IMG/VR virus record: IMGVR_UViG_3300014208_000025
Location: 52,967 to 116,966 of that record
DNA length: 64,000 nt
Strand: one strand, 5' to 3'
Origin: a virus
Taxonomy: Duplodnaviria > Heunggongvirae > Uroviricota > Caudoviricetes
Within the stretch, counting starts at the first letter, position 1. Every line of letters starts with the position of its first letter. The notes under the pieces were generated by a model. The model did no database searches, was not told the DNA's origin, and worked only from the letters and a program-made list of their open reading frames with translations. The position numbers and the translations under genes are program-made. Below, one piece after another: positions 20,445 through 63,951 of this stretch.

Positions 20445-20801
20445 TTATTTACCAACACCCGAACCGAGTTGGGCAAGAAGTTGTGTAAGTTTATCGTTGA
20501 ATTTTGTCCACCAACCCGGACTTTGAACTTCTTTATATCCTTTTACAAATGACGGCGAATATTTATCAAGTTCACGCTCTACACCAGAGAGTTTATCTTT
20601 CACACCCCACTTCTTACCGTTTTCATACTGCCATTTTGGAGAGTGGGGTTGTAACTTGTCAGAACCAGATGTTTTTTGTGGAACATCCAAATCCCACGTC
20701 TTCGTTGGTGTGGTTGGGGGTTGCCAACGCTTTTGAGGTTCTTCATTCAAACTTTCCAGAAAAACTTTCGTTATAGCGGCTTTGATTTGCGACTCTTTCA
20801 T
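20445..20801 (-). CDS. Hypothetical protein with N-terminal amphipathic helix/E motif
   Basis: MKESQIKAAITKVFLESLNEE. Confidence 0.65.
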   Translation of the reverse strand: MKESQIKAAITKVFLESLNEEPQKRWQPPTTPTKTWDLDVPQKTSGSDKLQPHSPKWQYENGKKWGVKDKLSGVERELDKYSPSFVKGYKEVQSPGWWTKFNDKLTQLLAQLGSGVGK

Positions 20802-21968
20802 TTACTTACGAAGACGGAATTTCTTGGTAGCTGGTAAATCAGTCTTGAGTTTATCCGCTCCGTCATCCTTCTTGATCTTTGGTGGTTTGACATGAGGGGT
20901 CTTCTCAATGTTCTTGTTCTTGGAATCAGGGTCTTTTCCCGGTTCCGTTACCTGTTTCAAAGGTTGGTCGGGTTGGTCTTCTTCCTTGGAAACGGCTTTC
21001 TCGTTGTAATTCTTATCGTCCCGTTTGGTGTCTTTGATTTTGGCATCTTCACCATTTTTCTTTTCACCACGATTTTTGATGTCGGTTTGAATTGGGCCGG
21101 CAGCCTTCTTGATAACGTCCCGGTCTTCATAGTGGTCGAGGGATTTCTTTTTGGCCGCATCCGTTTTGTTTTCCAAAGTTCCGAAATTAGCCTTGACGAA
21201 ATCCTTGACTTGTTCCCAAGTTACTGCAATCACACGAATACGGTCAGCCAGTTTTATCATCGCATCAATATCAAAGTTATTCTCAAACTTTGGTGTAATA
21301 CGAACGCTCAACAAATTGTTGGCGGACACTACCAAGTCATTGCGGTCATCCCAATAGACATCCCAATCGGCGTTGATACCATGAACAATCGTTTCCAACT
21401 CCTTGCAAAGTTTGGTGTTGTTCTTGTCAAGTCTCTCATTTCCATCCTTTGCAAAGCCCTTTTGAACCTTTTCCGTTTCTTCCTTGTCCGGTTCTGGTTT
21501 AGTGCCCGTGGAAATTTCCTTCAAAACGTTGCGGACAACTTTCCTCAGAGATTCTTTCAGGCGAATACGTGGGTCGTTCTCAGCTTTGACTTCAGCAATA
21601 CACTCACGGACTAGGGATTGGAATTTTTGTTTTTCGGTTTTCATGTGTTGGTTCTCCTGAAATCTATCTCTTGGTTCGTTCTGAGTTGGTTCAATTGGGT
21701 TTTGTTGTCTGATGCCGGGCTTTAAATGTTTCACAATATCATAGACATTAACGCCTACTTCGGTTGTGTCATACAGCGGCCCCTTGATGGTTTCACCCGT
21801 TTCTGAATCCACATACTGAACGACCTTCGGGCCAATGGAATTTTTCTTCAATTGTTCTACCGCCTGTTCAAATGACTTGGTTGTATTAATGGCAACTATT
21901 TCACGCTTATGCTTGGAGGCATTCTCATGGTCTATGACAACGGTTTTACTTTGATTGTTCTCGTTCAT
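20802..21968 (-). CDS. Hypothetical charged protein, putative virion/head-associated
   Basis: FQSLVRECIAE and LKESLRKVVRNVLKE motifs; TATTTATA upstream. Confidence 0.7.
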   Translation of the reverse strand: MNENNQSKTVVIDHENASKHKREIVAINTTKSFEQAVEQLKKNSIGPKVVQYVDSETGETIKGPLYDTTEVGVNVYDIVKHLKPGIRQQNPIEPTQNEPRDRFQENQHMKTEKQKFQSLVRECIAEVKAENDPRIRLKESLRKVVRNVLKEISTGTKPEPDKEETEKVQKGFAKDGNERLDKNNTKLCKELETIVHGINADWDVYWDDRNDLVVSANNLLSVRITPKFENNFDIDAMIKLADRIRVIAVTWEQVKDFVKANFGTLENKTDAAKKKSLDHYEDRDVIKKAAGPIQTDIKNRGEKKNGEDAKIKDTKRDDKNYNEKAVSKEEDQPDQPLKQVTEPGKDPDSKNKNIEKTPHVKPPKIKKDDGADKLKTDLPATKKFRLRK

Positions 21969-48650: not shown

Positions 48651-49679
48651 TTATACCGCCGGAGCGGAGGCAATAGATTTATTTAACGTATCAAGCTCTT
48701 TTCTCTTATCCAAAATTTTGAATTTCTTATCCTTTAAATCTGCTTCTTTCCATTTCTTATCCGCTTTCAATATTTTGTCTTCTCTTTCGGCAGAAGCTTT
48801 TTGCTTTAATAAGTCTGTTTTGGTTTGTTGGGAAGTAGTAGTATCTGTAGGTAATCCAATATTAGATGTGTTCGGGTCTAAACCAGAAGGTGTCATTGAT
48901 GGCGGAGGCATAAACTCTTCCAACATTTCCTTCACGATTTCCTTGATGGTCTGTTGAAGTTTTTCTTTGTTATCGGTTGGAGGCATCGGAGTCTGTGGTG
49001 GCTTTTCAGTTCTTACCAACGAAGCGAGTGAGGGCATTGCGACTGGTGATTGTTCCGTGTCCGAACTAGAATGAGCCAATTTGAATTTGTTGGTCAATTC
49101 CTGAAACAAACTGATATCAAACCAACCGAAGGCCCACTGAAAGAATTTCTTCTTTTGTTCATCGGTATATTGTGGCGATCCCAAGGCTTTACGAACGTTG
49201 GTCGTAGAAATTGGTTTACCTTCAATCATGTTGTCATCCATAATTTGGACATAACCATGTATTTCAAATGACTTCATGGTTGACTCGTTCCCTCTGTAAG
49301 GTTGGAAATACGAAGGTTTATTATTGTTATCATTCCATACCGGTTTGTTTTCAACTGTAGAAACATGAATACGCAGGGTATCCCATTCTTTTTGGTTGAG
49401 AACGAATACGGCAGTCGTATGTTTGGAAGAGAATTTCTGAAAAATTTCAACAGGGCGATGCCAGTCTTCAACCTTGACGACATGACTAGCAGGAACACCA
49501 TGACGAACCCAGATGTTTTCCTTTTCACCGAAATTCAATGGAGCTTCGGGAGTTGGAGTTTTACTGGTTGTAACTACAAATGTTTCTGGTCCGACCAACT
49601 GCCTCAATTTCTTATAGACATACAAATGTCCACGATGCGGCGGCTGGAAGTTTCCAGGATATATTCCCACGACTTTCAC
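48651..49679 (-). CDS. HIGH-superfamily (cytidylyl/adenylyl)transferase with C-terminal extra module
   Basis: GIYPGNFQPPHRGH, ISTTNVRKAL; GTG start overlapping endonuclease stop. Confidence 0.75.
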   Translation of the reverse strand: MKVVGIYPGNFQPPHRGHLYVYKKLRQLVGPETFVVTTSKTPTPEAPLNFGEKENIWVRHGVPASHVVKVEDWHRPVEIFQKFSSKHTTAVFVLNQKEWDTLRIHVSTVENKPVWNDNNNKPSYFQPYRGNESTMKSFEIHGYVQIMDDNMIEGKPISTTNVRKALGSPQYTDEQKKKFFQWAFGWFDISLFQELTNKFKLAHSSSDTEQSPVAMPSLASLVRTEKPPQTPMPPTDNKEKLQQTIKEIVKEMLEEFMPPPSMTPSGLDPNTSNIGLPTDTTTSQQTKTDLLKQKASAEREDKILKADKKWKEADLKDKKFKILDKRKELDTLNKSIASAPAV

Positions 49680-50428
49680 AAAATTTCCTTTTTCAATTTT
49701 CTTAATACCCAAGATTTTTTAATATTATCTCTATGTTTTTGCCTATTTTCTTCACTCATATTCTTATATCCTTCACTAACCGAACCTCCATGTAATTTTT
49801 TTACTACATCATTTTCGTAAAATTTTTTCATTGATTGACTTTTTTTCTTTTTACTTTCATCCGATTGATGCGTTCCTTGTAAATGATTATTTCCTTTATG
49901 AGAGTCACTCATTTTTCTTTTTGTTTCTTCGGTATGTTTTTTTCCAAACATGGGATGATTTTCTCCCTGTTTTATCATACTTAATTTTTTTCTAGTTTCT
50001 ATTGATAATGTTTTTCCAAACATAGGATGATTAGACCCACTATTTATATCGCTTAACAATTTTTTTGTTTCTTTACTACGAATCTTTCCTCTATTGCCAT
50101 CACCTATTCTTTTTCTGGTTTCTGAATTCATTTCTATTTTACCAGCAACCAATGACAAATTATACAACTTTTCCGATTTCTTAAAATCATCAATGTATTT
50201 TTGTTCGGTGGTTAACAAATCAGATTCATTACAAACTTCAACGATTGAAAAGATAAAACTCTTTTCTCCATGTTTGTTCCACGACCGTTGAAGATAACAG
50301 TTGTCATGAGTATTATGTCTTAGTCTTTTCTTATGGTCTATCCATCTCCGTTTAATGTTGTTACTGCTACCAAAATAATGTTTTCCATTAACCACGTTTG
50401 TTATTTCATAAACTCCTATGATTTTCAT
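49676..50428 (-). CDS. GIY-YIG homing endonuclease with NUMOD3 repeats
   Basis: GVYEITNVVNGKHYFGSS; HPMFGK repeats. Confidence 0.9.
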   Translation of the reverse strand: MKIIGVYEITNVVNGKHYFGSSNNIKRRWIDHKKRLRHNTHDNCYLQRSWNKHGEKSFIFSIVEVCNESDLLTTEQKYIDDFKKSEKLYNLSLVAGKIEMNSETRKRIGDGNRGKIRSKETKKLLSDINSGSNHPMFGKTLSIETRKKLSMIKQGENHPMFGKKHTEETKRKMSDSHKGNNHLQGTHQSDESKKKKSQSMKKFYENDVVKKLHGGSVSEGYKNMSEENRQKHRDNIKKSWVLRKLKKEIL

Positions 50429-50429
50429 G

Positions 50430-50828
50430 TTATTTTATAGATTTCAGAAATTTATCTATACCTTGTTTTCCATATCTTTGTATGAATTCATCAAATGCTC
50501 GCTGACATTCTTCATTTTCACAATCGGAATGAACATACTCCGATTGCGGAGGTTGTTCATTTGGCCAATAAACTGGATGTGGAATTTTGTCGGCACCAGT
50601 TTTACCACACAACCCACAAACATCATCAACATTTTCTTTTACAAAAGGAGTTCTTTTTGTTAATCTTGGGTCGGTTAAAGCATCCCGTTCCGGTTTAATA
50701 TAAGTTCCACCCACGGCAGTCTGTTGAGATTCATATGAACCACCACCCATAGTTGGTTCACTATTGTCTTCATTTACAAGAGTGGTCAAGACTTCCTTGA
50801 TAAGTTGTTTGAGTTGAAATTCCTTCAT
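50430..50828 (-). CDS. Hypothetical modular protein with helix/E motif
   Basis: MKEFQLKQLIKEVL...VNE; FVKE then CGLC module. Confidence 0.6.
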   Translation of the reverse strand: MKEFQLKQLIKEVLTTLVNEDNSEPTMGGGSYESQQTAVGGTYIKPERDALTDPRLTKRTPFVKENVDDVCGLCGKTGADKIPHPVYWPNEQPPQSEYVHSDCENEECQRAFDEFIQRYGKQGIDKFLKSIK

Positions 50829-54520: not shown

Positions 54521-55717
54521 CTAAAGCAGGTGGGTTTCCGCTCCAACCAATTGCCCATTATTTCTAATAGGTCTTACATCAGGACAAGCGACTAACCTCG
54601 TAGTTCCTACGATTAAATTACTTCCTTGTTTAAGGATATTCAGTGAGGCATTCAAATCTCTATCCAAGTTCTTTTGGCATCGTGGGCATTCCCATTCTCG
54701 TTGGTCTAATGTTAGACCTTCGTTAATGTATCCACAATGATTACAGGTTTTAGAGGATGGAAAGTATCGGTCAATCTTAACAACCTTTCTTCCATACCAA
54801 CCCGCTTTATAGGTTATCTGTCTCACAAGTTCTCCCCAAGAAGCATCTCCAATAGATTTAGATAGGCAATGATTAGACATCATATTCTTCACGGACAAAT
54901 CTTCCAGACAGATTACTTGATTTTCGTTAATCAGTTTAGATGTTATTTGGTGAAGGTGATTATGACGGATGTTGGCAATCTTTACTTGGACTTTACCAAC
55001 TTTCAATCGTGCTTTGTCTCTACCTTTGGAACCTTTCTTGGTTCTACTCAACTCTTTCTGTCTCAATCTTAATTGTTTTTCATATTGTTTTGTTGTCTTT
55101 ATGTTTGGAAATGTTTGTCCGTCAGAGCATACGACCAATGACTTAATACCTAAATCTATTCCAATCATTCTATCGGTTTTAGGTTTGGGTTCAATGGTTC
55201 GGGTCACTCCAATACAAGCATAGTATTGTCCTGCTTTGTTTCGGGTGATGGTAGCATAGTTAATATCACCTTCAATCTCACGATGTAGGTCAATCTTAAT
55301 GCCTTCCTTAAACTTTGGAAAGTGTATTCGTTTGTTCTCAATGGTGACGAATTGTGGAATACGAAATGACTGCTTATTCTTCTTGGACTTAAATCTTGGG
55401 AACTTGGCAAGTTTCTTAAAGAAACGATTGTATGCTCCGTCCAAATGTTTTATGGCGTGTTGTAGTGATTGTGAATTACATTCATTCAACCATTCAGTTT
55501 CTTCTTTGGACTTAATCTGTGTGAGTTCCTTTGCCATATCCACATAAGTCAATGTTTTCTTGGCAAGTTGTTTTTCTTTCGCTTCGAGATAGAACTTGGT
55601 TCTCCTGTCAAGGAATAGGTTATAGACAAAACGAATACAACCAAAGTGTTTGGACAACAGGACTTCTTGTTCCTTTGTAGGAGTTAAGCGAAGTTTGTAT
55701 GTGTATTCCTGTTTCAT
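54521..55717 (-). CDS. tnpB: RNA-guided endonuclease TnpB
   Basis: HTH (LLSKHFGCIRFVYN), RuvC GIDLG, LEDL, DRDLNA, Zn ribbon CNHC..CPRC. Confidence 0.95.
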   Translation of the reverse strand: MKQEYTYKLRLTPTKEQEVLLSKHFGCIRFVYNLFLDRRTKFYLEAKEKQLAKKTLTYVDMAKELTQIKSKEETEWLNECNSQSLQHAIKHLDGAYNRFFKKLAKFPRFKSKKNKQSFRIPQFVTIENKRIHFPKFKEGIKIDLHREIEGDINYATITRNKAGQYYACIGVTRTIEPKPKTDRMIGIDLGIKSLVVCSDGQTFPNIKTTKQYEKQLRLRQKELSRTKKGSKGRDKARLKVGKVQVKIANIRHNHLHQITSKLINENQVICLEDLSVKNMMSNHCLSKSIGDASWGELVRQITYKAGWYGRKVVKIDRYFPSSKTCNHCGYINEGLTLDQREWECPRCQKNLDRDLNASLNILKQGSNLIVGTTRLVACPDVRPIRNNGQLVGAETHLL

Positions 55718-56115
55718 CCTTGTGATTTAATGTATTCCAAAATGGTTTGGGTAGAGACATCTCCCGTAGAACATACAAAATATCCATCTGACCAGAAAGT
55801 GTGTTTCTTCCAAAAATGTTGTTTCAACTCATTAGAATAATGTTTCCATATATTCCAAGTGGTTTCTTGTTTAAGATATTGAACTAACGATGTAGGAGAA
55901 AGAGTAGGTGGAACATCAACTAACAAATGGACATGGTCTGTGTCGGTATTCATCATATCCACAACGACATCATTCTTTTTACAGACATCCATACAAAACT
56001 GCTTAATATCATCAGCAATCATTCCTACAAGGATTGACTTACGATATTTACAAACGAAAACAAGATGTAGTTTTAATAGATACTTGCTTCTGTTCTTTGT
56101 ATGGTATTTCTTCAT
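55714..56115 (-). CDS. tnpA: Y1 HUH transposase TnpA
   Basis: LHLVFVCKYR, DHVHLLV, FWSDGYF, EYIKSQ. Confidence 0.95.
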   Translation of the reverse strand: MKKYHTKNRSKYLLKLHLVFVCKYRKSILVGMIADDIKQFCMDVCKKNDVVVDMMNTDTDHVHLLVDVPPTLSPTSLVQYLKQETTWNIWKHYSNELKQHFWKKHTFWSDGYFVCSTGDVSTQTILEYIKSQG

Positions 56116-56193: not shown

Positions 56194-57924
56194 TCATCCC
56201 ACTCCCTCAAAGGAAGTGGGTTTTCTGGTGACGGAAAGATAAATGCTTGTTATTTTTGGATTCTTAACATCATACTTTTTGTGTAAATATGATTTAACTT
56301 CTTCCAATTGTTTAGTTGATGGATATTCCCACCAAAACAATTCATTAACATCAGACCTATAACGCCAACGAATCATTGTACTCAAATCCTTATACAACGA
56401 TTCGTGATCCGATGTTAACTTTCCCGTGAATTTTTTAGAACTAATATTCAATTCGTTGTCAACAACACCAATTAAAATATACGATGTGGGATCAATTTTT
56501 TTAGAATGTATTTCTTCTAATTTTTCAGGATGGGAGTCATACCATGTAGGCGTTCCGTAAATGGATTTACCTTGTCCGGCCCGCACGGTATCTACACTTG
56601 CCATTACTACTTGTTTTGGTCTTTGAGTTACACCTAAATTCTTCCGCAACCATTGCAGGACTTCTTCCTTTTCATCCTCTTCGGGAGTATCCCACCAATA
56701 TAAAATATTCAAATCGTAACGAAAACGCCATGATCGGTATTCTTTAGAATGATAATCGGGGAACAATAACATATGACCTGCTGCTTTCGGAGTTGCCTTT
56801 CGACCAACCACTTTCAATTTTGGTGTTACGATTCCAACGTAAAGATTTCCAACCCCTACATTTTCATTAATGCGATGAGCCGAAATAAAAAAATCCATTC
56901 GACTATATGATTCTTTGGGATTAACTACTCCGTATTTGTTACGAAGGTAATCCAAGGTGGTATCTCGTATATCGACTACTTTTCGAGTATCTGCAATTTG
57001 GCGTATGTCTGTTTGCCACCAATAGAGTGTATTATTAGATGATTTGTAACGCCAATGAATTTCAATGTTGTTAGTGTCATAGTTGGGAGAATGGAGATTT
57101 TCATGATGCACTTTATCACCAATCATATCTTTTTGAGCCATCACTTGAAAACTATCATTTGTTATTCCTACTACAAGAAACGGAGGTTTTTCTACACCAA
57201 CTTCCGTAATACTAACTGACTTGTCATAAAGGGTATTGATGGCATCCTTGAGTTTGGTGATGACTTCTGTGTGCCGTAACGCTTTGAAGACAAGATTTTC
57301 TGTGCTGAATTCACCCACTTGTTCCAGTCCGGCGTTTCGATAGTTCTTCAACGCCTTCATCAATTTCTTGAGTTTTTCAACATCCCGATCCTCCACAAAT
57401 TCGTCAACCATCTTTTTGATTTTACGATACTTTTCTTTAATTTTTTCTTTGTCAATGTCAATCTGTTGACGGTCAGGGGTCTTCAACCAAACACCCTTCA
57501 AAAGGGAATAGATGGTTGACCCCTTACGAGCTTGAGCGGGAGTGCTATTCTTTTCCGTCTGATCTTGAAGATAGACTTCAACAGGATGACCCTTGATAGA
57601 GATTTCGTGACTATTATTCCAACCAGCGCCCAACCCATCCATGAATTGGCGAGCATGTTCGGGAGCAATGTTTTCCTTGGTAATGTCAACAATAATATGC
57701 AAATCAAGGTCGCTAGTCGGTGTCCAATTGTAATTGGTGGTTGACCCAAGAAAAAGAATATCAATGATGGGAGCTTTGAGTTTTGTGTTCCGATAGAAGT
57801 CCTGTGCCACTTTCAGCAGACTAACCTTGACATCAGGATTGAGAACTATGTTTTCATCCCAAATTTTCGGGTCAAGAGTGCTATTGTAGATTTTAAACTT
57901 TACTTCTTGAAGTCCGGCAATCAT
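56194..57924 (-). CDS. Pol-beta-superfamily nucleotidyltransferase followed by three WR[YF]...WW repeats; last 14 codons IS-derived
   Basis: LGSTTNYNW...SDLDLHIIVD, VEVYLQD; three repeats. Confidence 0.8.
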   Translation of the reverse strand: MIAGLQEVKFKIYNSTLDPKIWDENIVLNPDVKVSLLKVAQDFYRNTKLKAPIIDILFLGSTTNYNWTPTSDLDLHIIVDITKENIAPEHARQFMDGLGAGWNNSHEISIKGHPVEVYLQDQTEKNSTPAQARKGSTIYSLLKGVWLKTPDRQQIDIDKEKIKEKYRKIKKMVDEFVEDRDVEKLKKLMKALKNYRNAGLEQVGEFSTENLVFKALRHTEVITKLKDAINTLYDKSVSITEVGVEKPPFLVVGITNDSFQVMAQKDMIGDKVHHENLHSPNYDTNNIEIHWRYKSSNNTLYWWQTDIRQIADTRKVVDIRDTTLDYLRNKYGVVNPKESYSRMDFFISAHRINENVGVGNLYVGIVTPKLKVVGRKATPKAAGHMLLFPDYHSKEYRSWRFRYDLNILYWWDTPEEDEKEEVLQWLRKNLGVTQRPKQVVMASVDTVRAGQGKSIYGTPTWYDSHPEKLEEIHSKKIDPTSYILIGVVDNELNISSKKFTGKLTSDHESLYKDLSTMIRWRYRSDVNELFWWEYPSTKQLEEVKSYLHKKYDVKNPKITSIYLSVTRKPTSFEGVG

Positions 57925-60074
57925 TACTTCTTTCGTTTCTGAAACAACATCCGTTCCAAAACATTCTTGGTTCGGGAAATGGTTTCTTGGGTCACACCCA
58001 AAGAGGTTTTTTCTAATGTATTATCAGAAACGCTTTTTGGGGTGCCACGATGAAACTTAACCAACGTCTCAGCATATTTATTAATCTCTTTGAACTTATC
58101 CAACGCTTCACGGGGAGACATTTCCGATGTCCGTGAAACAGCCGCATGAGAAATGGCGGCGATACTATTGATAAACTGTTGTTCTTCTTGTTCAGAATAT
58201 TCCTTCAAGACTTCATGTACCGATTCTTTGAGCATACTATGGAGTTTATCCTTTGAAGTTGACCCTTTGGCTTCATACAATGGTTTGCCAAGAGATATGT
58301 TATCTTGTTGTTTCTTCTTGGCTATATTCCAAAGATGCATGGCATTACGTCGGTTATATTCTCCACTTGGAACCACATCCCCAACTTTGTAAATAAATCC
58401 GTAATTTTTTAGAGGTTCGCCAGTGTATTTATGAAGACCATCAAGATTGTCACGTTCCCATTCTTTTACAGTATCGTATTGTTTCAAAGTTTCATCGGGT
58501 AATTGCCAAGTAGTTTCTTTAACCAATCCCTTTGATTTGGTGATGGTGGATTTCTCGTTATCGGGATTCCATTTGTGGCCACACTTGCATTGGTGAACCG
58601 TAGGATTTGATGAATTCAAAACTTGGCCTTCGCCTGCCTTGGCAACCATACCACACTGAGGACATTTCTCACCGACATAATCATCCACCCATTTTTCGTA
58701 ATCGGCATTTTCCGACATGCCGCCACCAACCGATGGCAATCCTGCCATTGAATCGGGTTTACCACCCTTGTATAAATCAACCAAGTTTTTGTCCGAACCG
58801 GGTTCGGTTGCACGACCTGTTGGGCCTTCTTTGTTTGTGTCTCCCGAAGTGTTACCTATGTCGGCCCACATTTCCGATACAATTTCATTGATAATATCTT
58901 TGATGATTGACTTTACTTCTGATTCAGTAATGGTTTCAAACTTCACCGTCCATCGAGCGCCTCTGAAAGCTTTCTTGGGGTCTTTGGACATATCTCCAGC
59001 ACCGTAACCTTCTCTGAATTTCATATTAGAATATTCGTTTCCTTTTATTCCATAATACCCATCATAATATCCTTGTGAATATGCTTTCTGGTTTGGGGAT
59101 GGGCCAGCTTTTAATCCCAGCGGTTTTTGACTTAACGATTTATCAGTTTTGCCATTTTGTAATCCGTCTTCATATGCGGAAACTGGAGATACCCAATCTG
59201 TTGATGCTTCGTTTGTAGTTTCTTTGTAACCAACCGGCACTTCGGCCTTGGAATTGGAATCACGAATAAACGCCCGAATACCACCTTCGTAATGTTGTTG
59301 AACACCACGGAGGATTTCTTCATCACTCATATCAGGAAGGTCTTCATCGTCTTTCCATTGACAATCGGCAGCCCAATCACGCATCTGTTTAATCAGTTCA
59401 GGATTTTCGGTCGCAAAGCGAATGACAGAGCCGGGAGCACCTTGAGCGATAATAGATTGACCAGACGAAGTTTGAGTGTGGTTGACTTCTGTTTTGACTT
59501 CTTTGTAATCATGTATTCGCGGTGTAGTTCCAAACCGTTTCCAATCAAAATTAAGACTTGACGGATCGTGAACACCTTCCGGCTCATCATCTAATTGGTC
59601 GTGTGGTTCTTTTTTCTTCTCAATTCCATCCGGGTCCCGCCGTTGTTTTAACTTTATTATTCGAGACATTCCGTAGCCTTCTTGTAATTCCTCGTTTTCA
59701 TAATATTCCCAAGCATCTTTGATCGGAGGTTTGCCTTCACGTTTTCTGAAATCGTTAGCTTGTTGAATATGATATCCTCCGAATTCTTTGTTAAAAACAC
59801 CGATTAACACTTTTAAGTCGTTAGTTTCCTTAACTCTTTTGGCAATAGCTTTTCTCAAAGCAACAATCAACCTCAATGATGGGTCATCAAGATTAGCAAT
59901 ATCCAGCATTTTTAGATACAAATCATTTCCATCAGCACTCACTACTTCTGGAGTGGAGTCTTCCATGCTTTCTTCAAAGGGAACATCATAACCTTCATTG
60001 GTCAATTCTTCGGTTACGATTTCTTTCAAAATTTTGTTTAGTTCAGATGATTTCATATGGCATTTTTGGTTCAT
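57924..60074 (-). CDS. Large modular protein, putative head-packaged polyprotein
   Basis: Three amphipathic helix/E motifs, repeated E-GY[GD] junctions, CPQC..CKC finger. Confidence 0.7.
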   Translation of the reverse strand: MNQKCHMKSSELNKILKEIVTEELTNEGYDVPFEESMEDSTPEVVSADGNDLYLKMLDIANLDDPSLRLIVALRKAIAKRVKETNDLKVLIGVFNKEFGGYHIQQANDFRKREGKPPIKDAWEYYENEELQEGYGMSRIIKLKQRRDPDGIEKKKEPHDQLDDEPEGVHDPSSLNFDWKRFGTTPRIHDYKEVKTEVNHTQTSSGQSIIAQGAPGSVIRFATENPELIKQMRDWAADCQWKDDEDLPDMSDEEILRGVQQHYEGGIRAFIRDSNSKAEVPVGYKETTNEASTDWVSPVSAYEDGLQNGKTDKSLSQKPLGLKAGPSPNQKAYSQGYYDGYYGIKGNEYSNMKFREGYGAGDMSKDPKKAFRGARWTVKFETITESEVKSIIKDIINEIVSEMWADIGNTSGDTNKEGPTGRATEPGSDKNLVDLYKGGKPDSMAGLPSVGGGMSENADYEKWVDDYVGEKCPQCGMVAKAGEGQVLNSSNPTVHQCKCGHKWNPDNEKSTITKSKGLVKETTWQLPDETLKQYDTVKEWERDNLDGLHKYTGEPLKNYGFIYKVGDVVPSGEYNRRNAMHLWNIAKKKQQDNISLGKPLYEAKGSTSKDKLHSMLKESVHEVLKEYSEQEEQQFINSIAAISHAAVSRTSEMSPREALDKFKEINKYAETLVKFHRGTPKSVSDNTLEKTSLGVTQETISRTKNVLERMLFQKRKK

Positions 60075-60273
60075 TACTATAAATAGTGATTTGCAACTCA
60101 TTTATCAATACAGATTACTGTATGATATTAAAATAACAATTTTTAACTTGACACCATTCCGAATTCCCATATTCTGTACTTCCTGAAAAGCTGGACTGCT
60201 TACTGAAAGACAAAGCTAAAAGCTAAAGAGGATAATAAAAGAGTACAAGTTAAAGCTGTACACTGTACAAAAA

Positions 60274-60480
60274 TCAATCCGACAGTAGTATTTTGACGTG
60301 ATGAGTTAAAATGCGATGTCGGATTTCTTTAACGTAGTCGGGATATTCAACAGAATTTATTTCTTCCCAAGCACTGGAACTATTGGGTTGACCATAACTC
60401 GGTCCTTCCCGAGTATGCTCCAAATTGTTGTCATTGTATTCAACAAATTCAGGAGCATTCAATGAATTTTTATGCTTCAT
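60274..60480 (-). CDS. Hypothetical protein
   Basis: Co-oriented short ORF. Confidence 0.4.
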   Translation of the reverse strand: MKHKNSLNAPEFVEYNDNNLEHTREGPSYGQPNSSSAWEEINSVEYPDYVKEIRHRILTHHVKILLSD

Positions 60481-60577
60481 AACTCACAGGAATAAATAGT
60501 TTTGCCGTGTATGTTAATAAATGATTTCAGTCCTACCAGTAAAACTTTTTTTGAAGATTTTAGAACGTTTTGATTTT

Positions 60578-61798
60578 TTACAGTATAGAAAAATGTTCTC
60601 TCGGTAACGGTTTGGTCAACGCCAGTTTGGCGGGCAAACCAAGTCGTCTGGAAGATTCCAATTCATTGGCCACTGATTTTCCGGTACCATCCTCGGAGTC
60701 AACAATCAAATAGTTCAATGGAATATGTTTTACTTTTACAATTGTATCTTCACCTTTTTCATTAGCAAACCAACGGGCATCCTCACTATCTGTCGTCAGA
60801 TACAAATACTTCATTTGACCTAAATTTCCTCCTTGATTCCATTTGTTCGGTTGCCAACCATTAACTACCAAATTCTTACCACTAGATGCCGATGTTCCAT
60901 GATACATGGTCATGGTTGTGGATTTGGATTTGACAACTTCCAACAATTCAATTTCCTTTGCGGTATTACCATCACGCAATGTATATTTGTTTTCAATGGC
61001 GAAATTCTTCAACTCACGTATTTGTTTTGATGTAACTGTTTGATTGATTCCATACGTGAAAAACAGAATACGATTACCCGTATCAACGGTTACACGAACA
61101 TATCCTTGATCGCGAGCTATCTCATAAACATCTTCGGGTTCCAGAAGAGAACCATAAGGGTCAATTGGATAACCGTCGTCATTTACTTCATAACCATCTG
61201 GAAATTGTAGAGTATCAATGACCCATTGAATGTGGTCGTTTACTTCAATCAACGAACCACCTTCTGACAACCAATAATTTTTGATTCCCGAACCAATCCA
61301 TTCCGTTAAACGTTCCGCTCGGGAATTACGGGCCACAATATCTTCAAGTTTTTTACCATCATGTTGCAGCAATGCCTTCAATCCAAAATGTAATGGTTTT
61401 GGAAACTGACCAAACTTAAACCATTTGAAACCGTCAATTTCCCACTCGTTAGCTTGGTTTGGTCTTGGAGTAAATTCATCATCCACTACAATTAGAAAGT
61501 TGTGATATTCAAACCCGGATGGATGTTTGAAAACATAAAGTGGTATGATTTCTCGGATGGTGTTAGAACTGACTCCCGTTTCTTCTTCAAACTCATTCAG
61601 AGCTGCATCTTCGGGTGAAAGTTCAGAATCAATTGCTCCGCCCCAAGTTCCCCATGAATTCGGTTCTTCAACATTTTCACTACGAAGCTGTATCAACATC
61701 CGACCCGTAGTTCGAGCCATAATAAGCGAACCAGCACCCCGCCGGCCCCAAAAGCCGGTTTCTTCTCGTGCTCTATCATGTTCTAGCTCGTCGTTCAT
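60578..61798 (-). CDS. Nudix hydrolase + unknown domain + ADP-ribosyltransferase-like domain
   Basis: GGAIDSELSPEDAALNEFEEETG (Nudix box); MYHGTS...YLYLTTDSEDARWFA (ART). Confidence 0.75.
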   Translation of the reverse strand: MNDELEHDRAREETGFWGRRGAGSLIMARTTGRMLIQLRSENVEEPNSWGTWGGAIDSELSPEDAALNEFEEETGVSSNTIREIIPLYVFKHPSGFEYHNFLIVVDDEFTPRPNQANEWEIDGFKWFKFGQFPKPLHFGLKALLQHDGKKLEDIVARNSRAERLTEWIGSGIKNYWLSEGGSLIEVNDHIQWVIDTLQFPDGYEVNDDGYPIDPYGSLLEPEDVYEIARDQGYVRVTVDTGNRILFFTYGINQTVTSKQIRELKNFAIENKYTLRDGNTAKEIELLEVVKSKSTTMTMYHGTSASSGKNLVVNGWQPNKWNQGGNLGQMKYLYLTTDSEDARWFANEKGEDTIVKVKHIPLNYLIVDSEDGTGKSVANELESSRRLGLPAKLALTKPLPREHFSIL

Positions 61799-62421
61799 AC
61801 TTGTCGTTCCGCGTTGATTTGATGTGTGATTTTCTGGTCAGTCACATTATCATCTACTATTACATATTTGACAAAAATCGTTGACCCCGGTAGGAAACGT
61901 ATCTCTTGTTCCAAGTCTCCAATGGACATGTCCATTCTTGCATGAATCGTTCCCGGCCAATCCACAACATCTAAATCAATATTCGCTTCATAGACACAAG
62001 TGAAATGTGGTTCGCCAATGTGTTCGCCCCAATGAGCTTCAGCAGCCGTATCTACAATGGCCCAATAAACACCAAGCGGATTCAACTTTCTTGGGTCGAG
62101 AGTTCTTGGAATAACGATTTCTCTCCAACAAGGTTTTCCATCCAAATATTTGTAATCCAATAGGATATCCTCATAACGATTCAATTGCTCCCCACGAATT
62201 ATTGCGTCGATTTCATCATCATCAATTTTATGTTGATGGTCATTACGAATGTAATCGACTTCTGCTTTGTAACCGTCTGACATTTGAATATCACGCCACA
62301 CTTTCTCAAAAGAGGGCACCTTATTGGAGCTCTTAATGTGAGCCTTTTTCAGCAAGGTATCCTTTTTGAATTCCTTCTGTTTTTTGCTTCCTTCAAACAG
62401 TATAGATTTAAGTTTTATCAT
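61795..62421 (-). CDS. Putative ADP-ribosyltransferase-fold protein
   Basis: CWRE...LGVYWA...AEAHWG...EQEIRF; N-terminal MIKLKSILFE. Confidence 0.45.
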   Translation of the reverse strand: MIKLKSILFEGSKKQKEFKKDTLLKKAHIKSSNKVPSFEKVWRDIQMSDGYKAEVDYIRNDHQHKIDDDEIDAIIRGEQLNRYEDILLDYKYLDGKPCWREIVIPRTLDPRKLNPLGVYWAIVDTAAEAHWGEHIGEPHFTCVYEANIDLDVVDWPGTIHARMDMSIGDLEQEIRFLPGSTIFVKYVIVDDNVTDQKITHQINAERQV

Positions 62422-63488
62422 ATCTGTTTTAACACTTTTATTTTTGGAATTCCACGTTGCACAGCAGCCGCCAAACGATGTCCGCCATCAATGATGGTGT
62501 TATCCTTCTCTACGACAATTGGCGGGAACTCTCGTTGTGACCCGGCCAAAACATCCACCTTAGCAGGTTCAACATGCCATTCACTTTCAGGAATGGTATT
62601 TGGGTCAACCTCAATACATTTGAAGATACCCGTAACTCTATGGTCATCTGCAAATTCACCGTGTTGGCCGTAGATGTAATCCAACACGTCACCATCGGAA
62701 TAATACTTACCCACTTGAAAATCGGTAGCTAATGGATGTTCGGAAACACTGTATCCACCCTTGTCCTTGAATCTGTGTAGAATCTTTTCAATCTCCATCT
62801 CTTTCAAAGTATCTAACGATTCTTTGAGAAATCGTTTTGTATTTTCAGACAATTTTCCAGGAATGATAATCCCTTTTACATCCATGTCTCGGAGTTTACT
62901 TAACGTCATTGTTCCACCTTCCACAAACCATTTGGCCATAGCTCCTGACCCATGAACGAAGTTTAGAATTTGGTCAATGGCAATCAAACGTTCTTCATCG
63001 GTATCAGACTTGTAACCCTTTTCAAGAAGTTTGTATAAGCTACGTGAAGCATCTGAATATCTTCCCAAGCCCGGACCTTCCCAATCTATTGAGCTGCGAC
63101 CCCAATCAACATTGGACCGGTCAGAAATGAACACCGCCCAACGTTCCCAATCTTTCCGTGTAATGTCTTTGTATTCGTCATGACCAAAAAATTCAGGTTC
63201 CTTACCATCGGTGATGTCAGTTTGAATGATAATTTTGAGAACACAATTCTTCACAATCTGCCAGATGTTTTCCAATTTTTTTTCGTCAATCCTTCCATAT
63301 TTGGCATAGGTGTTCCAGACAACAATCAAATCACGAGCCGGAATCAACTTCCACGATTGATGTTTTTGGCCGGAAAACCATTCATTCTCAATTTCTTCTT
63401 TCACATCCTCAATATCAGTCATGAAGGTTCTATCATCTATAGACTCTTTGATAACATTCAAAATAGTAAGTTTTAGAGTAGGATTCAT
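62418..63488 (-). CDS. Two-module protein with C-terminal ParB/sulfiredoxin-like domain
   Basis: FPPIVVE...IIDGGHRLAAA..RG; junction FLKESLDTLKE. Confidence 0.7.
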   Translation of the reverse strand: MNPTLKLTILNVIKESIDDRTFMTDIEDVKEEIENEWFSGQKHQSWKLIPARDLIVVWNTYAKYGRIDEKKLENIWQIVKNCVLKIIIQTDITDGKEPEFFGHDEYKDITRKDWERWAVFISDRSNVDWGRSSIDWEGPGLGRYSDASRSLYKLLEKGYKSDTDEERLIAIDQILNFVHGSGAMAKWFVEGGTMTLSKLRDMDVKGIIIPGKLSENTKRFLKESLDTLKEMEIEKILHRFKDKGGYSVSEHPLATDFQVGKYYSDGDVLDYIYGQHGEFADDHRVTGIFKCIEVDPNTIPESEWHVEPAKVDVLAGSQREFPPIVVEKDNTIIDGGHRLAAAVQRGIPKIKVLKQI

Positions 63489-63925
63489 TAGATAACCTTG
63501 ACTAGTTTTTTTGAAATGACTTGTTCAGTGGGATTCGTTATAACTACCGAAATGTTCGACCCCTGACGAAATCCATGTGAATGTTCAATCCGATTGGTGT
63601 AAGCATAGGAATTGTGTCGGAGATTTGTGGAATCTTCAATATGTGGGTCTTCATCAAATAAAACATCGGAAATACTTCCAAGTGATACTTCCAATTCATA
63701 AACATAGAACTTCTTGAATTCGTAGTGTTTTTTTGTTTTCATATTCTTAATAATATCCATTGCTTGTTGAATTGACCCCACATGTAAAGAAGCATCATAC
63801 GGTTCAAAATTAGAACTCTCCGAAGCATGGTAACACATAATCGTTTTGGCGTGTCTCAATTGTTGAAATGTGGTCAACGGATTGAGTTTCAAACCCTCAC
63901 ATAGAAGTGTTGTCAACTTTACCAT
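63488..63925 (-). CDS. Putative ADP-ribosyltransferase-like protein
   Basis: CYHAS...F...LHVGSIQQA; N-terminal MVKLTTLLCE. Confidence 0.5.
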   Translation of the reverse strand: MVKLTTLLCEGLKLNPLTTFQQLRHAKTIMCYHASESSNFEPYDASLHVGSIQQAMDIIKNMKTKKHYEFKKFYVYELEVSLGSISDVLFDEDPHIEDSTNLRHNSYAYTNRIEHSHGFRQGSNISVVITNPTEQVISKKLVKVI

Positions 63926-63951
63926 ACAAATAAATATGAAATCAAATCAAC

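Follow-up and report, generated by a model that had tools for sequence, protein, structure and literature searches.

A candidate head-cargo gene cluster with putative T4-like capsid-targeting leaders in an uncultured jumbo phage

The DNA analysed here—a stretch of 64,000 nucleotides, in the following the window—covers bases 52967–116966 of a 279,228-bp IMG/VR viral contig (IMGVR_UViG_3300014208_000025). Within it lies a cluster of six co-oriented genes on the minus strand (56194–63925), the products of which would be cargo for the head of a T4-like jumbo phage. Of these products, four open with a short tag that recurs on unrelated proteins across the genome and follows the propeptides of phage T4 position by position, the genome encodes a gp21-type prohead protease, and relatives exchange modules of these proteins at joints carrying an [LIV]-x-E motif. 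By analogy with the T4 capsid-targeting sequence (CTS), we consider packaging of the tagged proteins into the capsid and trimming of their leaders to be rather probable; that the longer chains are also diced at their linkers is something we infer from the joints and put forward more tentatively. Positions are window coordinates unless they are marked "genome" or given by locus (L003, L004, L007 and so on).

In the proposed mechanism, leaders of 10 or of 15–16 residues would bind the scaffolding core during prohead assembly and thereby enclose the proteins attached to them, as in the T4 system. The prohead protease would then cut after the Glu of [LIV]-x-E, removing the leader, and might well also cut exposed [LIV]-x-E linkers between modules. 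The modules released in this way—three domains of ADP-ribosyltransferase (ART) fold, a Nudix domain, a nucleotidyltransferase, a ParB-like domain and modules without assigned fold—would leave the head with the DNA at infection and serve takeover or counter-defence through host targets, whether NAD/ADP-ribose, RNA or DNA. Modules would be swappable between genes and between phages because both the address and the joints are generic.

Leaders shared by unrelated proteins

The cluster genes form two translationally coupled groups, encoding proteins of 145, 356, 208 and 406 amino acids (aa) and of 710 and 576 aa, with a conserved 68-aa open reading frame (ORF) in between. A preliminary description of this DNA had pointed to N-terminal helices ending in Glu. 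The peptides it quoted were all found on the minus strand, namely MVKLTTLLCE (63925), MNPTLKLTILNVIKE (63488), MIKLKSILFE (62421) and MKSSELNKILKEIVTE (60056) in the cluster as well as MKEFQLKQLIKEVL (50828) and MKESQIKAAITKVFLE (20801) outside it; the internal copies, SEVKSIIKDIINEIVSE and KDKLHSMLKESVHEVLKE in the 710-aa and NTKRFLKESLDTLKE in the 356-aa protein, are likewise present.

A genome-wide survey, based on a crude gene call of the whole genome, yields two tag families. Class A comprises 13 ORFs opening with M-[IV]-[KRH]-L-[KT]-x-x-[LIVM], mostly in the form MIKLKxLLxE, and class B seven further ORFs with the longer amphipathic tag MKxSQLKxL[IV]KxV[LI]xE. An ATG precedes 13 of the 48 six-frame matches to [IV][KRH]L[KT]xx[LIVM], at an ATG frequency of 2% (p = 6e-12). 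The helical hydrophobic moment of the tags exceeds that of other N-termini (0.56 vs 0.43, p = 2e-5), class B above all. Beyond the tag these proteins are unrelated: all-against-all BLASTP among 25 proteins gave only three weak pairs. The idea of a shared helix/x-x-E tag hence stands for the specific families, which alone are significant, and falls for the generic x-x-E motif, which is found at a quarter of N-termini and does not discriminate; a loose definition (hydrophobic-x-E ending at residues 7–21) fits 78 of 318 proteins, including ribonucleotide reductase and exonuclease.

The motif profile that had been suggested for the genome proved unsuitable in its first form: when a hidden Markov model of the tag was run over the six-frame translation, the initiator Met governed the scores and copies inside proteins escaped it, and the model was dropped. 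The pattern itself reaches far beyond the window in the ORFs of both classes. The Met-free position-specific scoring matrix (PSSM) used in place of the model gives 29 internal matches in the genome against about 16 in shuffled sequence—an excess that is suggestive only, because shuffling destroys helix periodicity.

Similar gene starts might also reflect a feature of the DNA or RNA, for example an adaptor for recombination or an element for translation initiation; many tagged genes are indeed translationally coupled and devoid of a Shine–Dalgarno sequence. However, the residues are kept while the codons differ—Leu at tag position 4 is encoded by all six Leu codons—and internal copies lie far from any start codon. 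As the tag codons vary synonymously, selection acts on the peptide and not on the DNA or RNA; the nucleic acid-level explanation was rejected on these grounds, is largely refuted and retains next to no plausibility.

Two of the 13 class A ORFs are merely 34 and 25 codons long (L003:6678-6782 and L003:7925-8002, plus strand; genome 136678 and 137925). They consist of the perfect tags MIRLTPMLTE and MIKLKSLISE, a short remainder and a stop, and may be decayed tagged genes or leaders severed from the ORFs that follow.

The same leaders are found in relatives, for which IMG/VR loci L007 and L011–L017 and the Flavobacterium phage immuto (L009; MW353177) were compared. MIKLK leaders open many different proteins in L007 and L011–L017, six of them within 20 kb in L012, and immuto carries MKKSQL..II.E-type leaders on at least six proteins, one being the product of a 73-aa gene between portal and protease. 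In the family of the 208-aa protein, MIK...E occupies residues 1–10 in 19 of 20 homologues, exceptions being N-terminally truncated or lacking Glu10. In L015, MIKLADIIYE replaces MNPTLKLTILNVIKE on the orthologue of the 356-aa N-module, and the junction E↓SI(G/D)DR is conserved (the arrow marks the position after Glu); the two leader classes are therefore interchangeable.

A third leader family was seen in immuto, M(E/A)(N/D)(T)F(D/N)L(K/R)(K/S)FL(V/T)ENKL, which contains L-x-E and opens three otherwise different proteins (L009 4793-5341, 18618-19619 and 19619-19918).

Prohead protease and correspondence to T4

A gp21-like protease, which the preliminary description had named as something to locate, is encoded at genome 156369-156986. 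It matches Peptidase_S77 (PF03420, the family of T4 gp21) with 90 bits against a cut-off of 27 and keeps the GELDHP and GISSRG blocks of the catalytic region. Its gene is flanked by tagged genes (370, 309 and 269 aa) in the positions of T4 genes 67, 68 and 22; the N-terminus of the 269-aa protein resembles that of the tagged 132-aa protein at 50828. The major capsid protein segment ..KQLIEE↓ATATG aligns to the T4 gp23 cut ..SFLTE↓AEIGG, and the scaffold (genome 144555-146018) opens with MINSELLKE↓A. Scaffold and protease are rich in [LIVM]-x-E (4.5, the 98th percentile of the proteome, and 4.4 per 100 aa), as expected of proteins that are digested.

The T4 propeptides are 10 residues long in the gp24/Alt type and 65 residues in gp23 (PMC9958956), and the CTS rule assigns targeting to residues 4 and 7 and processing to residues 8 and 10 (PMC9026906). 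The leaders read from the T4 genome (NC_000866) are MAKINELLRE↓S for gp24, MELITELFDE↓D for Alt and MLKEQLIAE↓A for gp22. Class A tags have the length of the 10-residue propeptides and present Leu4, Ile/Leu7, Leu/Ile8 and Glu10; MIKLKSILFE and MVKLTTLLCE fit the rule exactly, and class B fits it if aligned at the Glu. In T4, replacing residue 10 by Asp prevents cleavage and leaves targeting intact. This position-by-position match, together with the presence of the cognate protease, the occurrence of the same leader on head-core genes and the location among late structural genes, argues against the view that the leader serves another role—as a signal for degradation or timing, as an address for a chaperone or the membrane, or as an oligomerisation helix—and resembles T4 by convergence. 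In favour of such a role, the leader is short, AlphaFold2 (AF2) gives it no structure, and packaging is itself concluded by analogy; we consider it very improbable all the same.

The tagged proteins could, alternatively, be accessories of the prohead core or scaffold that are degraded or retained in the head, so that their enzyme-like domains are not delivered. Several of the tagged genes flanking the protease indeed encode no enzyme-like domain, and T4 gp67, gp68 and gp22 behave in this way. Against this stand the Nudix, nucleotidyltransferase and three ART folds of the cluster, with conserved catalytic-type residues and no evident assembly role, and the precedent of T4 Alt, an ART that is packaged and injected. 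We regard the accessory role as improbable, and packaging for delivery as the better account.

The portal gene of this genome (gp20-like, 1011 aa; L004:10030-13065, minus strand, genome 160030-163065) shows an apparent insertion with HNH-like motifs at residues ~100–430, an intein or homing-endonuclease-like segment.

Joints and exchange of modules

It had been proposed that domain borders fall at ITE, RLTE, ELLE and IVKE, and this is where relatives were found to exchange modules: they swap, drop, split or fuse them at the [LIV]-x-E joints RLTE, ELLE, ITE, VKE and LSE. In an alignment of its homologues, the C-module of the 356-aa protein follows four different N-parts, with LSE↓N, LFE↓K, IAE↓I and VNE↓S/N as the joints; one of these N-parts is a stand-alone tagged protein in L007, and the 356-aa N-module stands alone behind MIKLADIIYE in L014 and L015. 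For the 710-aa protein, tblastn pieces in the relatives break at 121/124, 375 and 514/524, adjoining LQE127, ITE378 and VKE516, and their order differs; its tag and first module align to internal residues 200–295 of a 785-aa homologue in L007. Two of its linkers are full tag-like helices, ranking second and 25th among the 29 internal PSSM matches of the genome.

The 406-aa protein behaves similarly. Its low-confidence AF2 linkers (residues 157–172 and 284–291) contain RLTE and ELLE, and the middle module between them is missing in homologue P0025 and in loci L013 and L016, with breaks at or near the two joints. L014 and L015 match only Nudix residues 4–166 and continue, past a VNE↓S joint, into an unrelated C-terminal part, while in P0026 other N-terminal modules are joined to the same type of C-domain. 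The stretch preceding ELLE can be aligned with the tag that opens a stand-alone paralogue, MIKLKEVLED..MYHGG. The family of this C-domain comprises 133 cluster representatives and reaches into proteins of up to 3038 aa; of 98 cases, 53 have [LIVMF]-x-E within 22 residues upstream, against a baseline of 33% (p = 2e-5), with a peak 8–11 residues ahead of the catalytic-type His of the HGT motif. Leaders like those of T4, for instance MKNFQTFIIE and MKTFLEYITE, open the members that stand alone. The three repeats of the 576-aa protein follow ITE, INE and LEE, one motif ahead of each, and orthologues without the leader have as their first residue the one directly behind the putative cut MIAGLQE↓.

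These joints are the basis on which dicing by the prohead protease is suggested, as a possibility somewhat short of probable. The tags might, instead, load proteins whose long chains stay whole like true polyvalent proteins, the internal tags and joints being relics of gene fusion and not cut sites. Fused genes would be expected to leave traces such as those in L013, whose internal tags still start with Met-Lys (TMKQSELNQILREIIAE, TMKEFRSIVKELINE); [LIV]-x-E is frequent by chance, and for published polyvalent proteins, injection as whole chains, or processing by peptidases of their own, is assumed (PMC5512222). On the other side, the joints fall in low-confidence linkers, the motif keeps a constant distance to the ART domain that follows it across many unrelated architectures and is present in every one of the three repeat linkers of the 576-aa protein, and the same protease must already remove the N-terminal copies. 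We therefore judge whole chains unlikely, though less so than the other alternatives, and retain dicing as the preferred, if tentative, fate of the linkers.

Tag-like helices also lie inside proteins away from the cluster. A 353-aa cytidylyltransferase-like (NMNAT-type) protein (48651-49712, minus strand) has no N-terminal tag; a strong tag-like helix, LQQTIKEIVKEMLEE, lies at residues ~250–265 between its enzyme domain and its C-terminal part. The strongest internal match of the genome, RIRNMVKEVLKE, is at residues ~238–249 of a 616-aa protein encoded outside the window (genome 32099-33949, minus strand) and a long way from the structural region; this protein may be a jointed chain as well.

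Folds of the predicted cargo

The preliminary description had listed a nucleotidyltransferase, a Nudix domain, three ART-like domains and ParB/Srx as cargo. The Nudix domain is firmly recovered, the three ART-like domains (the 145-aa and 208-aa proteins and the 406-aa C-terminus) are supported at the level of predicted fold, the nucleotidyltransferase is probable and ParB/Srx is weak.

The Nudix domain of the 406-aa protein scores 55 bits in Pfam (cut-off 21.1), with Asn replacing the usual Arg in its Nudix box GGAIDSE..NEFEEETGV. The C-domain of the same protein is modelled with pLDDT 96–98, and Foldseek retrieves Tpt1/KptA (E 4e-4, probability 1.0). Members of its family match PARP, ART-PolyVal and Tpt1 Pfam models, and H300-G-T is nearly invariant. 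The predicted structure supports assignment to the ART fold, of H-Y-E type and Tpt1/PARP-like; Tpt1 proper is defined by an Arg-His-Arg-Arg tetrad, and we do not assign the domain to it.

For the 208-aa protein, the AF2 model (pLDDT 83) leaves tag residues 1–15 unstructured. ART toxins lead the fold searches both in Foldseek (E ~0.1) and VIA-wide, where pertussis S1 (Z 5.9, root-mean-square deviation 3.7, 106 aligned), CARDS (Z 5.2) and TreX (Z 5.1) were found. CWR (R100) and E171-x-E173 are invariant in 21 sequences, in which no S-T-S motif was identified. The 145-aa protein, whose start is backed by an L011 orthologue with identical upstream sequence, matches phrog_11632, and its ESM Atlas model is similar to ART-PolyVal, PARP, DUF3990 and RES clusters (TM score 0.60–0.62). 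As hhalign of this protein against the family of the 406-aa C-domain was negative (probability 0.1), its ART call comes from the Atlas structure search only.

The N-domain of the 576-aa protein is a probable Pol-beta-type nucleotidyltransferase, judged from its motif GSx12DLD (GSTTNYNWTPTSDLDLH) and a match to phrog_36119 (149 bits), a family without assigned function; Pfam NTP_transf_2 and MTPAP matches, at 17.9 and 16.8 bits, stay below cut-off. For the repeats of this protein an ESM Atlas search gave no usable match, and an ART-like nature found no support. The ParB assignment of the 356-aa C-module comes from a single PHROG match, phrog_8071 (44 residues, E 6.6e-4), and the invariant IIDGGHRLAAA. 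No fold could be assigned to most of the 710-aa protein, a Pfam search of nine sub-domains of the cluster proteins at E up to 10 returned nothing useful, and a family search with the 68-aa ORF gave no match. A frameshift fusion of the 710-aa and 576-aa genes was considered and rejected, the junction being a plain TAATG overlap.

Table 1. Leaders, modules, joints and promoter-like elements of the cluster and of tagged genes elsewhere in the window (the arrow marks the position after Glu; residue numbers refer to the protein named)
Feature	Position	Strand	Details
Promoter-like TATTTAT	63930..63936	-	4 nt upstream of the 145-aa ATG, first gene of operon; identical in L011
145-aa protein	63488..63925	-	Tag MVKLTTLLCE 63896-63925, then small predicted ART-fold domain (CYHAS...)
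356-aa two-module protein	62418..63488	-	Tag MNPTLKLTILNVIKE 63444-63488; N-module residues 16-215
356-aa joint	62799-62855		KLSE↓N and tag-like helix NTKRFLKESLDTLKE, residues 216-230
356-aa C-module	62421-62798		Invariant IIDGGHRLAAA, putatively ParB/Srx-like
208-aa protein	61795..62421	-	Tag MIKLKSILFE 62392-62421; helical N-domain; predicted R-S-E-like ART-fold domain residues ~91-208
406-aa protein, untagged, three modules	60578..61798	-	Nudix 20-142; middle module 167-283; predicted Tpt1/PARP-like ART-fold domain 293-406
406-aa joint RLTE	61301-61312		Residues 163-166
406-aa joint ELLE	60938-60949		Residues 284-287
68-aa ORF, untagged	60274..60480	-	MKHKNSLNAPEFVEYNDNNLEH...; own TATTTAT upstream
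Promoter-like TATTTATA	60078..60085	-	Upstream of the 710-aa gene
710-aa multi-module protein	57924..60056	-	Tag MKSSELNKILKEIVTE 60009-60056
710-aa joint LQE↓G			Residues 125-127
710-aa joint ITE↓S	58872-58931		Followed by tag-like SEVKSIIKDIINEIVSE, residues 379-395
710-aa zinc ribbon, Cys4-type			Residues 465-494
710-aa joint VKE↓T			Residues 514-516
710-aa joint LYE↓A	58200-58280		Followed by tag-like KDKLHSMLKESVHEVLKE, residues 602-619
576-aa protein	56194..57924	-	7-residue MIAGLQE↓V; probable Pol-beta-type nucleotidyltransferase residues 8-238; three ~105-aa repeats
132-aa protein	50430..50828	-	Tag MKEFQLKQLIKEVL..VNE; TATTTATA 4 nt upstream
388-aa gene	20802-21968		Internal tag-like RIRLKESLRKVVRNVLKE; 118-aa gene directly follows
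118-aa protein	20445..20801	-	Tag MKESQIKAAITKVFLE

Promoter-like element and genomic context

Several cluster genes had been described as carrying the late motif. What recurs before them is TATTTAT(A), read in the coding direction and located 4–30 nt before the ATG; it is the reverse of T4's TATAAATA and a plausible promoter. It precedes both cluster operons, the 68-aa ORF, the gene at 50828 and the 388-aa gene at 21968, and is three times more frequent in the structural half (18 of 98 genes) than elsewhere (17 of 274, p = 9e-4). At the 710-aa gene it lies 22 nt upstream of the true start 60056, which is 15 codons inside the longest ORF.

The cluster adjoins the tail sheath gene here as well as in L007 and L015, and homologues of the 68-aa ORF occupy the same place between the operons in L013 and L015. 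Directly on the downstream side of the cluster, within the phage genome, lies an IS200/IS605 element (54521-56115, minus strand) that encodes a TnpA Y1 transposase (125 bits) and a TnpB with OrfB_IS605 and Cas12f-like TNB domains.

The genome carries T4-type replication genes (UvsX, a gp32-like single-stranded DNA-binding protein, a DnaB-type helicase and ribonucleotide reductase) next to structural genes for a gp23-like capsid protein, a gp20-like portal and the large terminase. With its gp20, gp23, UvsX and gp32 homologues, the phage is, as its gene content indicates, a T4-like jumbo phage and not phiKZ-like. A 351,839-bp contig carries homologues of its proteins, and the genome is therefore probably about 350 kb. 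The large terminase shares 49% identity with its counterpart in Flavobacterium phage vB_FspM_immuto and 48% with the one in Microcystis phage Mel-JY01; the nearest cultured relative is the Flavobacterium phage, grown on Flavobacterium sp. LMO8. Searching GenBank phages by megablast, with the cluster and with 20 kb of the window, gave no match and no close published genome. The host is probably a member of the Bacteroidota or another non-enteric bacterium. Genome-wide, in tagged and untagged genes alike, Shine–Dalgarno sequences are nearly absent and gene starts often overlap the preceding stop (ATGA or TAATG), which fits a Bacteroidota-type or cyanobacterial host.

Points against packaging and processing

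Several observations weigh against packaging and processing as set out above. A proper tag is absent from two of the six products: the Nudix protein starts with MNDELEHD, and the nucleotidyltransferase has only the 7-residue MIAGLQE. Three MIKLK proteins elsewhere in the genome have no Glu at position 10. The 10-residue leader is unstructured in AF2 (pLDDT below 50). The [LIV]-x-E motif is common, with 1.7 occurrences per 100 aa and presence at 25% of N-termini, and any single predicted cut is weak for that reason, and internal tags are at most putative targeting signals. TATTTAT was not found before the major capsid protein, scaffold and portal genes and is not the T4 late promoter. The ART matches of the 208-aa protein are modest (Z below 6), and neither Pfam on all homologues nor phmmer and a six-sequence profile against PDB sequences supported ParB. 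The phage, finally, is uncultured and known from its sequence alone, and core binding, cleavage, packaging, injection and targets are what we infer from it.

Comparison with known systems

The system is a variant of the CTS/internal-protein system of T4 (IPI, IPII, IPIII, the Alt and gp24 propeptides, gp21), and the loading principle itself is known from T-even phages, where the CTS as a means to load varied proteins has already been published. Common to both (PMC9026906, PMC9958956, PMC3012670) are an N-terminal leader of 10–19 residues on unrelated proteins, hydrophobic residues 4, 7 and 8 with Glu10, the [L/I]-x-E cut motif and a cognate S77 protease, an ART among the cargo (T4 Alt) and head-core genes beside the protease with similar leaders. 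On the contrary, about 20 tagged proteins are found here instead of T4's handful, the leaders fall into two classes, including a 16-residue amphipathic helix, and share no sequence identity with those of T4, the cargo consists mostly of enzymes, and the host is probably Bacteroidota or otherwise non-enteric. Here, moreover, multi-module chains bear leader-like helices and cut motifs between the modules, which are shuffled among relatives.

It is conceivable, though we would not call it probable, that in environmental T4-like jumbo phages the prohead protease acts as a dicer: one leader would load a whole chain, the linkers would be cut in the head and the modules injected separately, with the same linkers serving as breakpoints of module exchange and giving a combinatorial payload far beyond the three internal proteins of T4. 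In the papers searched, neither CTS-type leaders shared by large enzyme sets nor chains with protease joints were described for distant T4-like jumbo phages.

In the phiKZ-like giants, too, a gp21-related protease (phiKZ gp175, SPN3US gp245) cleaves many head-internal proteins behind the Glu of a three-residue motif, and the propeptides are thought to direct incorporation (PMC9026906). There, however, the motif is S/A/G-x-E, and the propeptides are long and have no short leader in common.

A further likeness exists to the polyvalent proteins of Iyer, Burroughs, Anand, de Souza and Aravind (2017; PMC5512222), in which disparate effector domains (ART, ParB-like, Nudix, nucleotidyltransferases) are combined in one chain that is encoded beside virion genes and predicted to be injected. 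Disparate domains in one chain are found here too—Nudix with an ART fold in the 406-aa protein, a nucleotidyltransferase with repeats in the 576-aa protein. In the polyvalent proteins described, however, fusion to MuF or portal provides the anchor, or zincin-like peptidases within the chain do the processing (PMC5512222), whereas here a T4-type leader is the presumed address and the prohead protease the presumed processor; Pfam and PHROG gave no match to MuF, a portal anchor or a peptidase domain in the six cluster proteins. The chains are also shorter here, with 2–5 modules.

Implications

If the proposed mechanism is true, T4 capsid targeting would not be peculiar to three small T-even proteins but a general route by which large environmental phages deliver sets of enzymes at DNA entry, ahead of phage gene expression. 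It would account for the strong modularity of the tagged cargo genes and would provide a simple sequence rule predicting injected effectors in metagenomic phages, as well as address and linker elements of natural origin with which foreign proteins could be loaded into phage heads. An early conflict with host defences over NAD, ADP-ribose or RNA-end chemistry is hinted at by the three ART-fold proteins and by the Nudix/Tpt1-like fusion.

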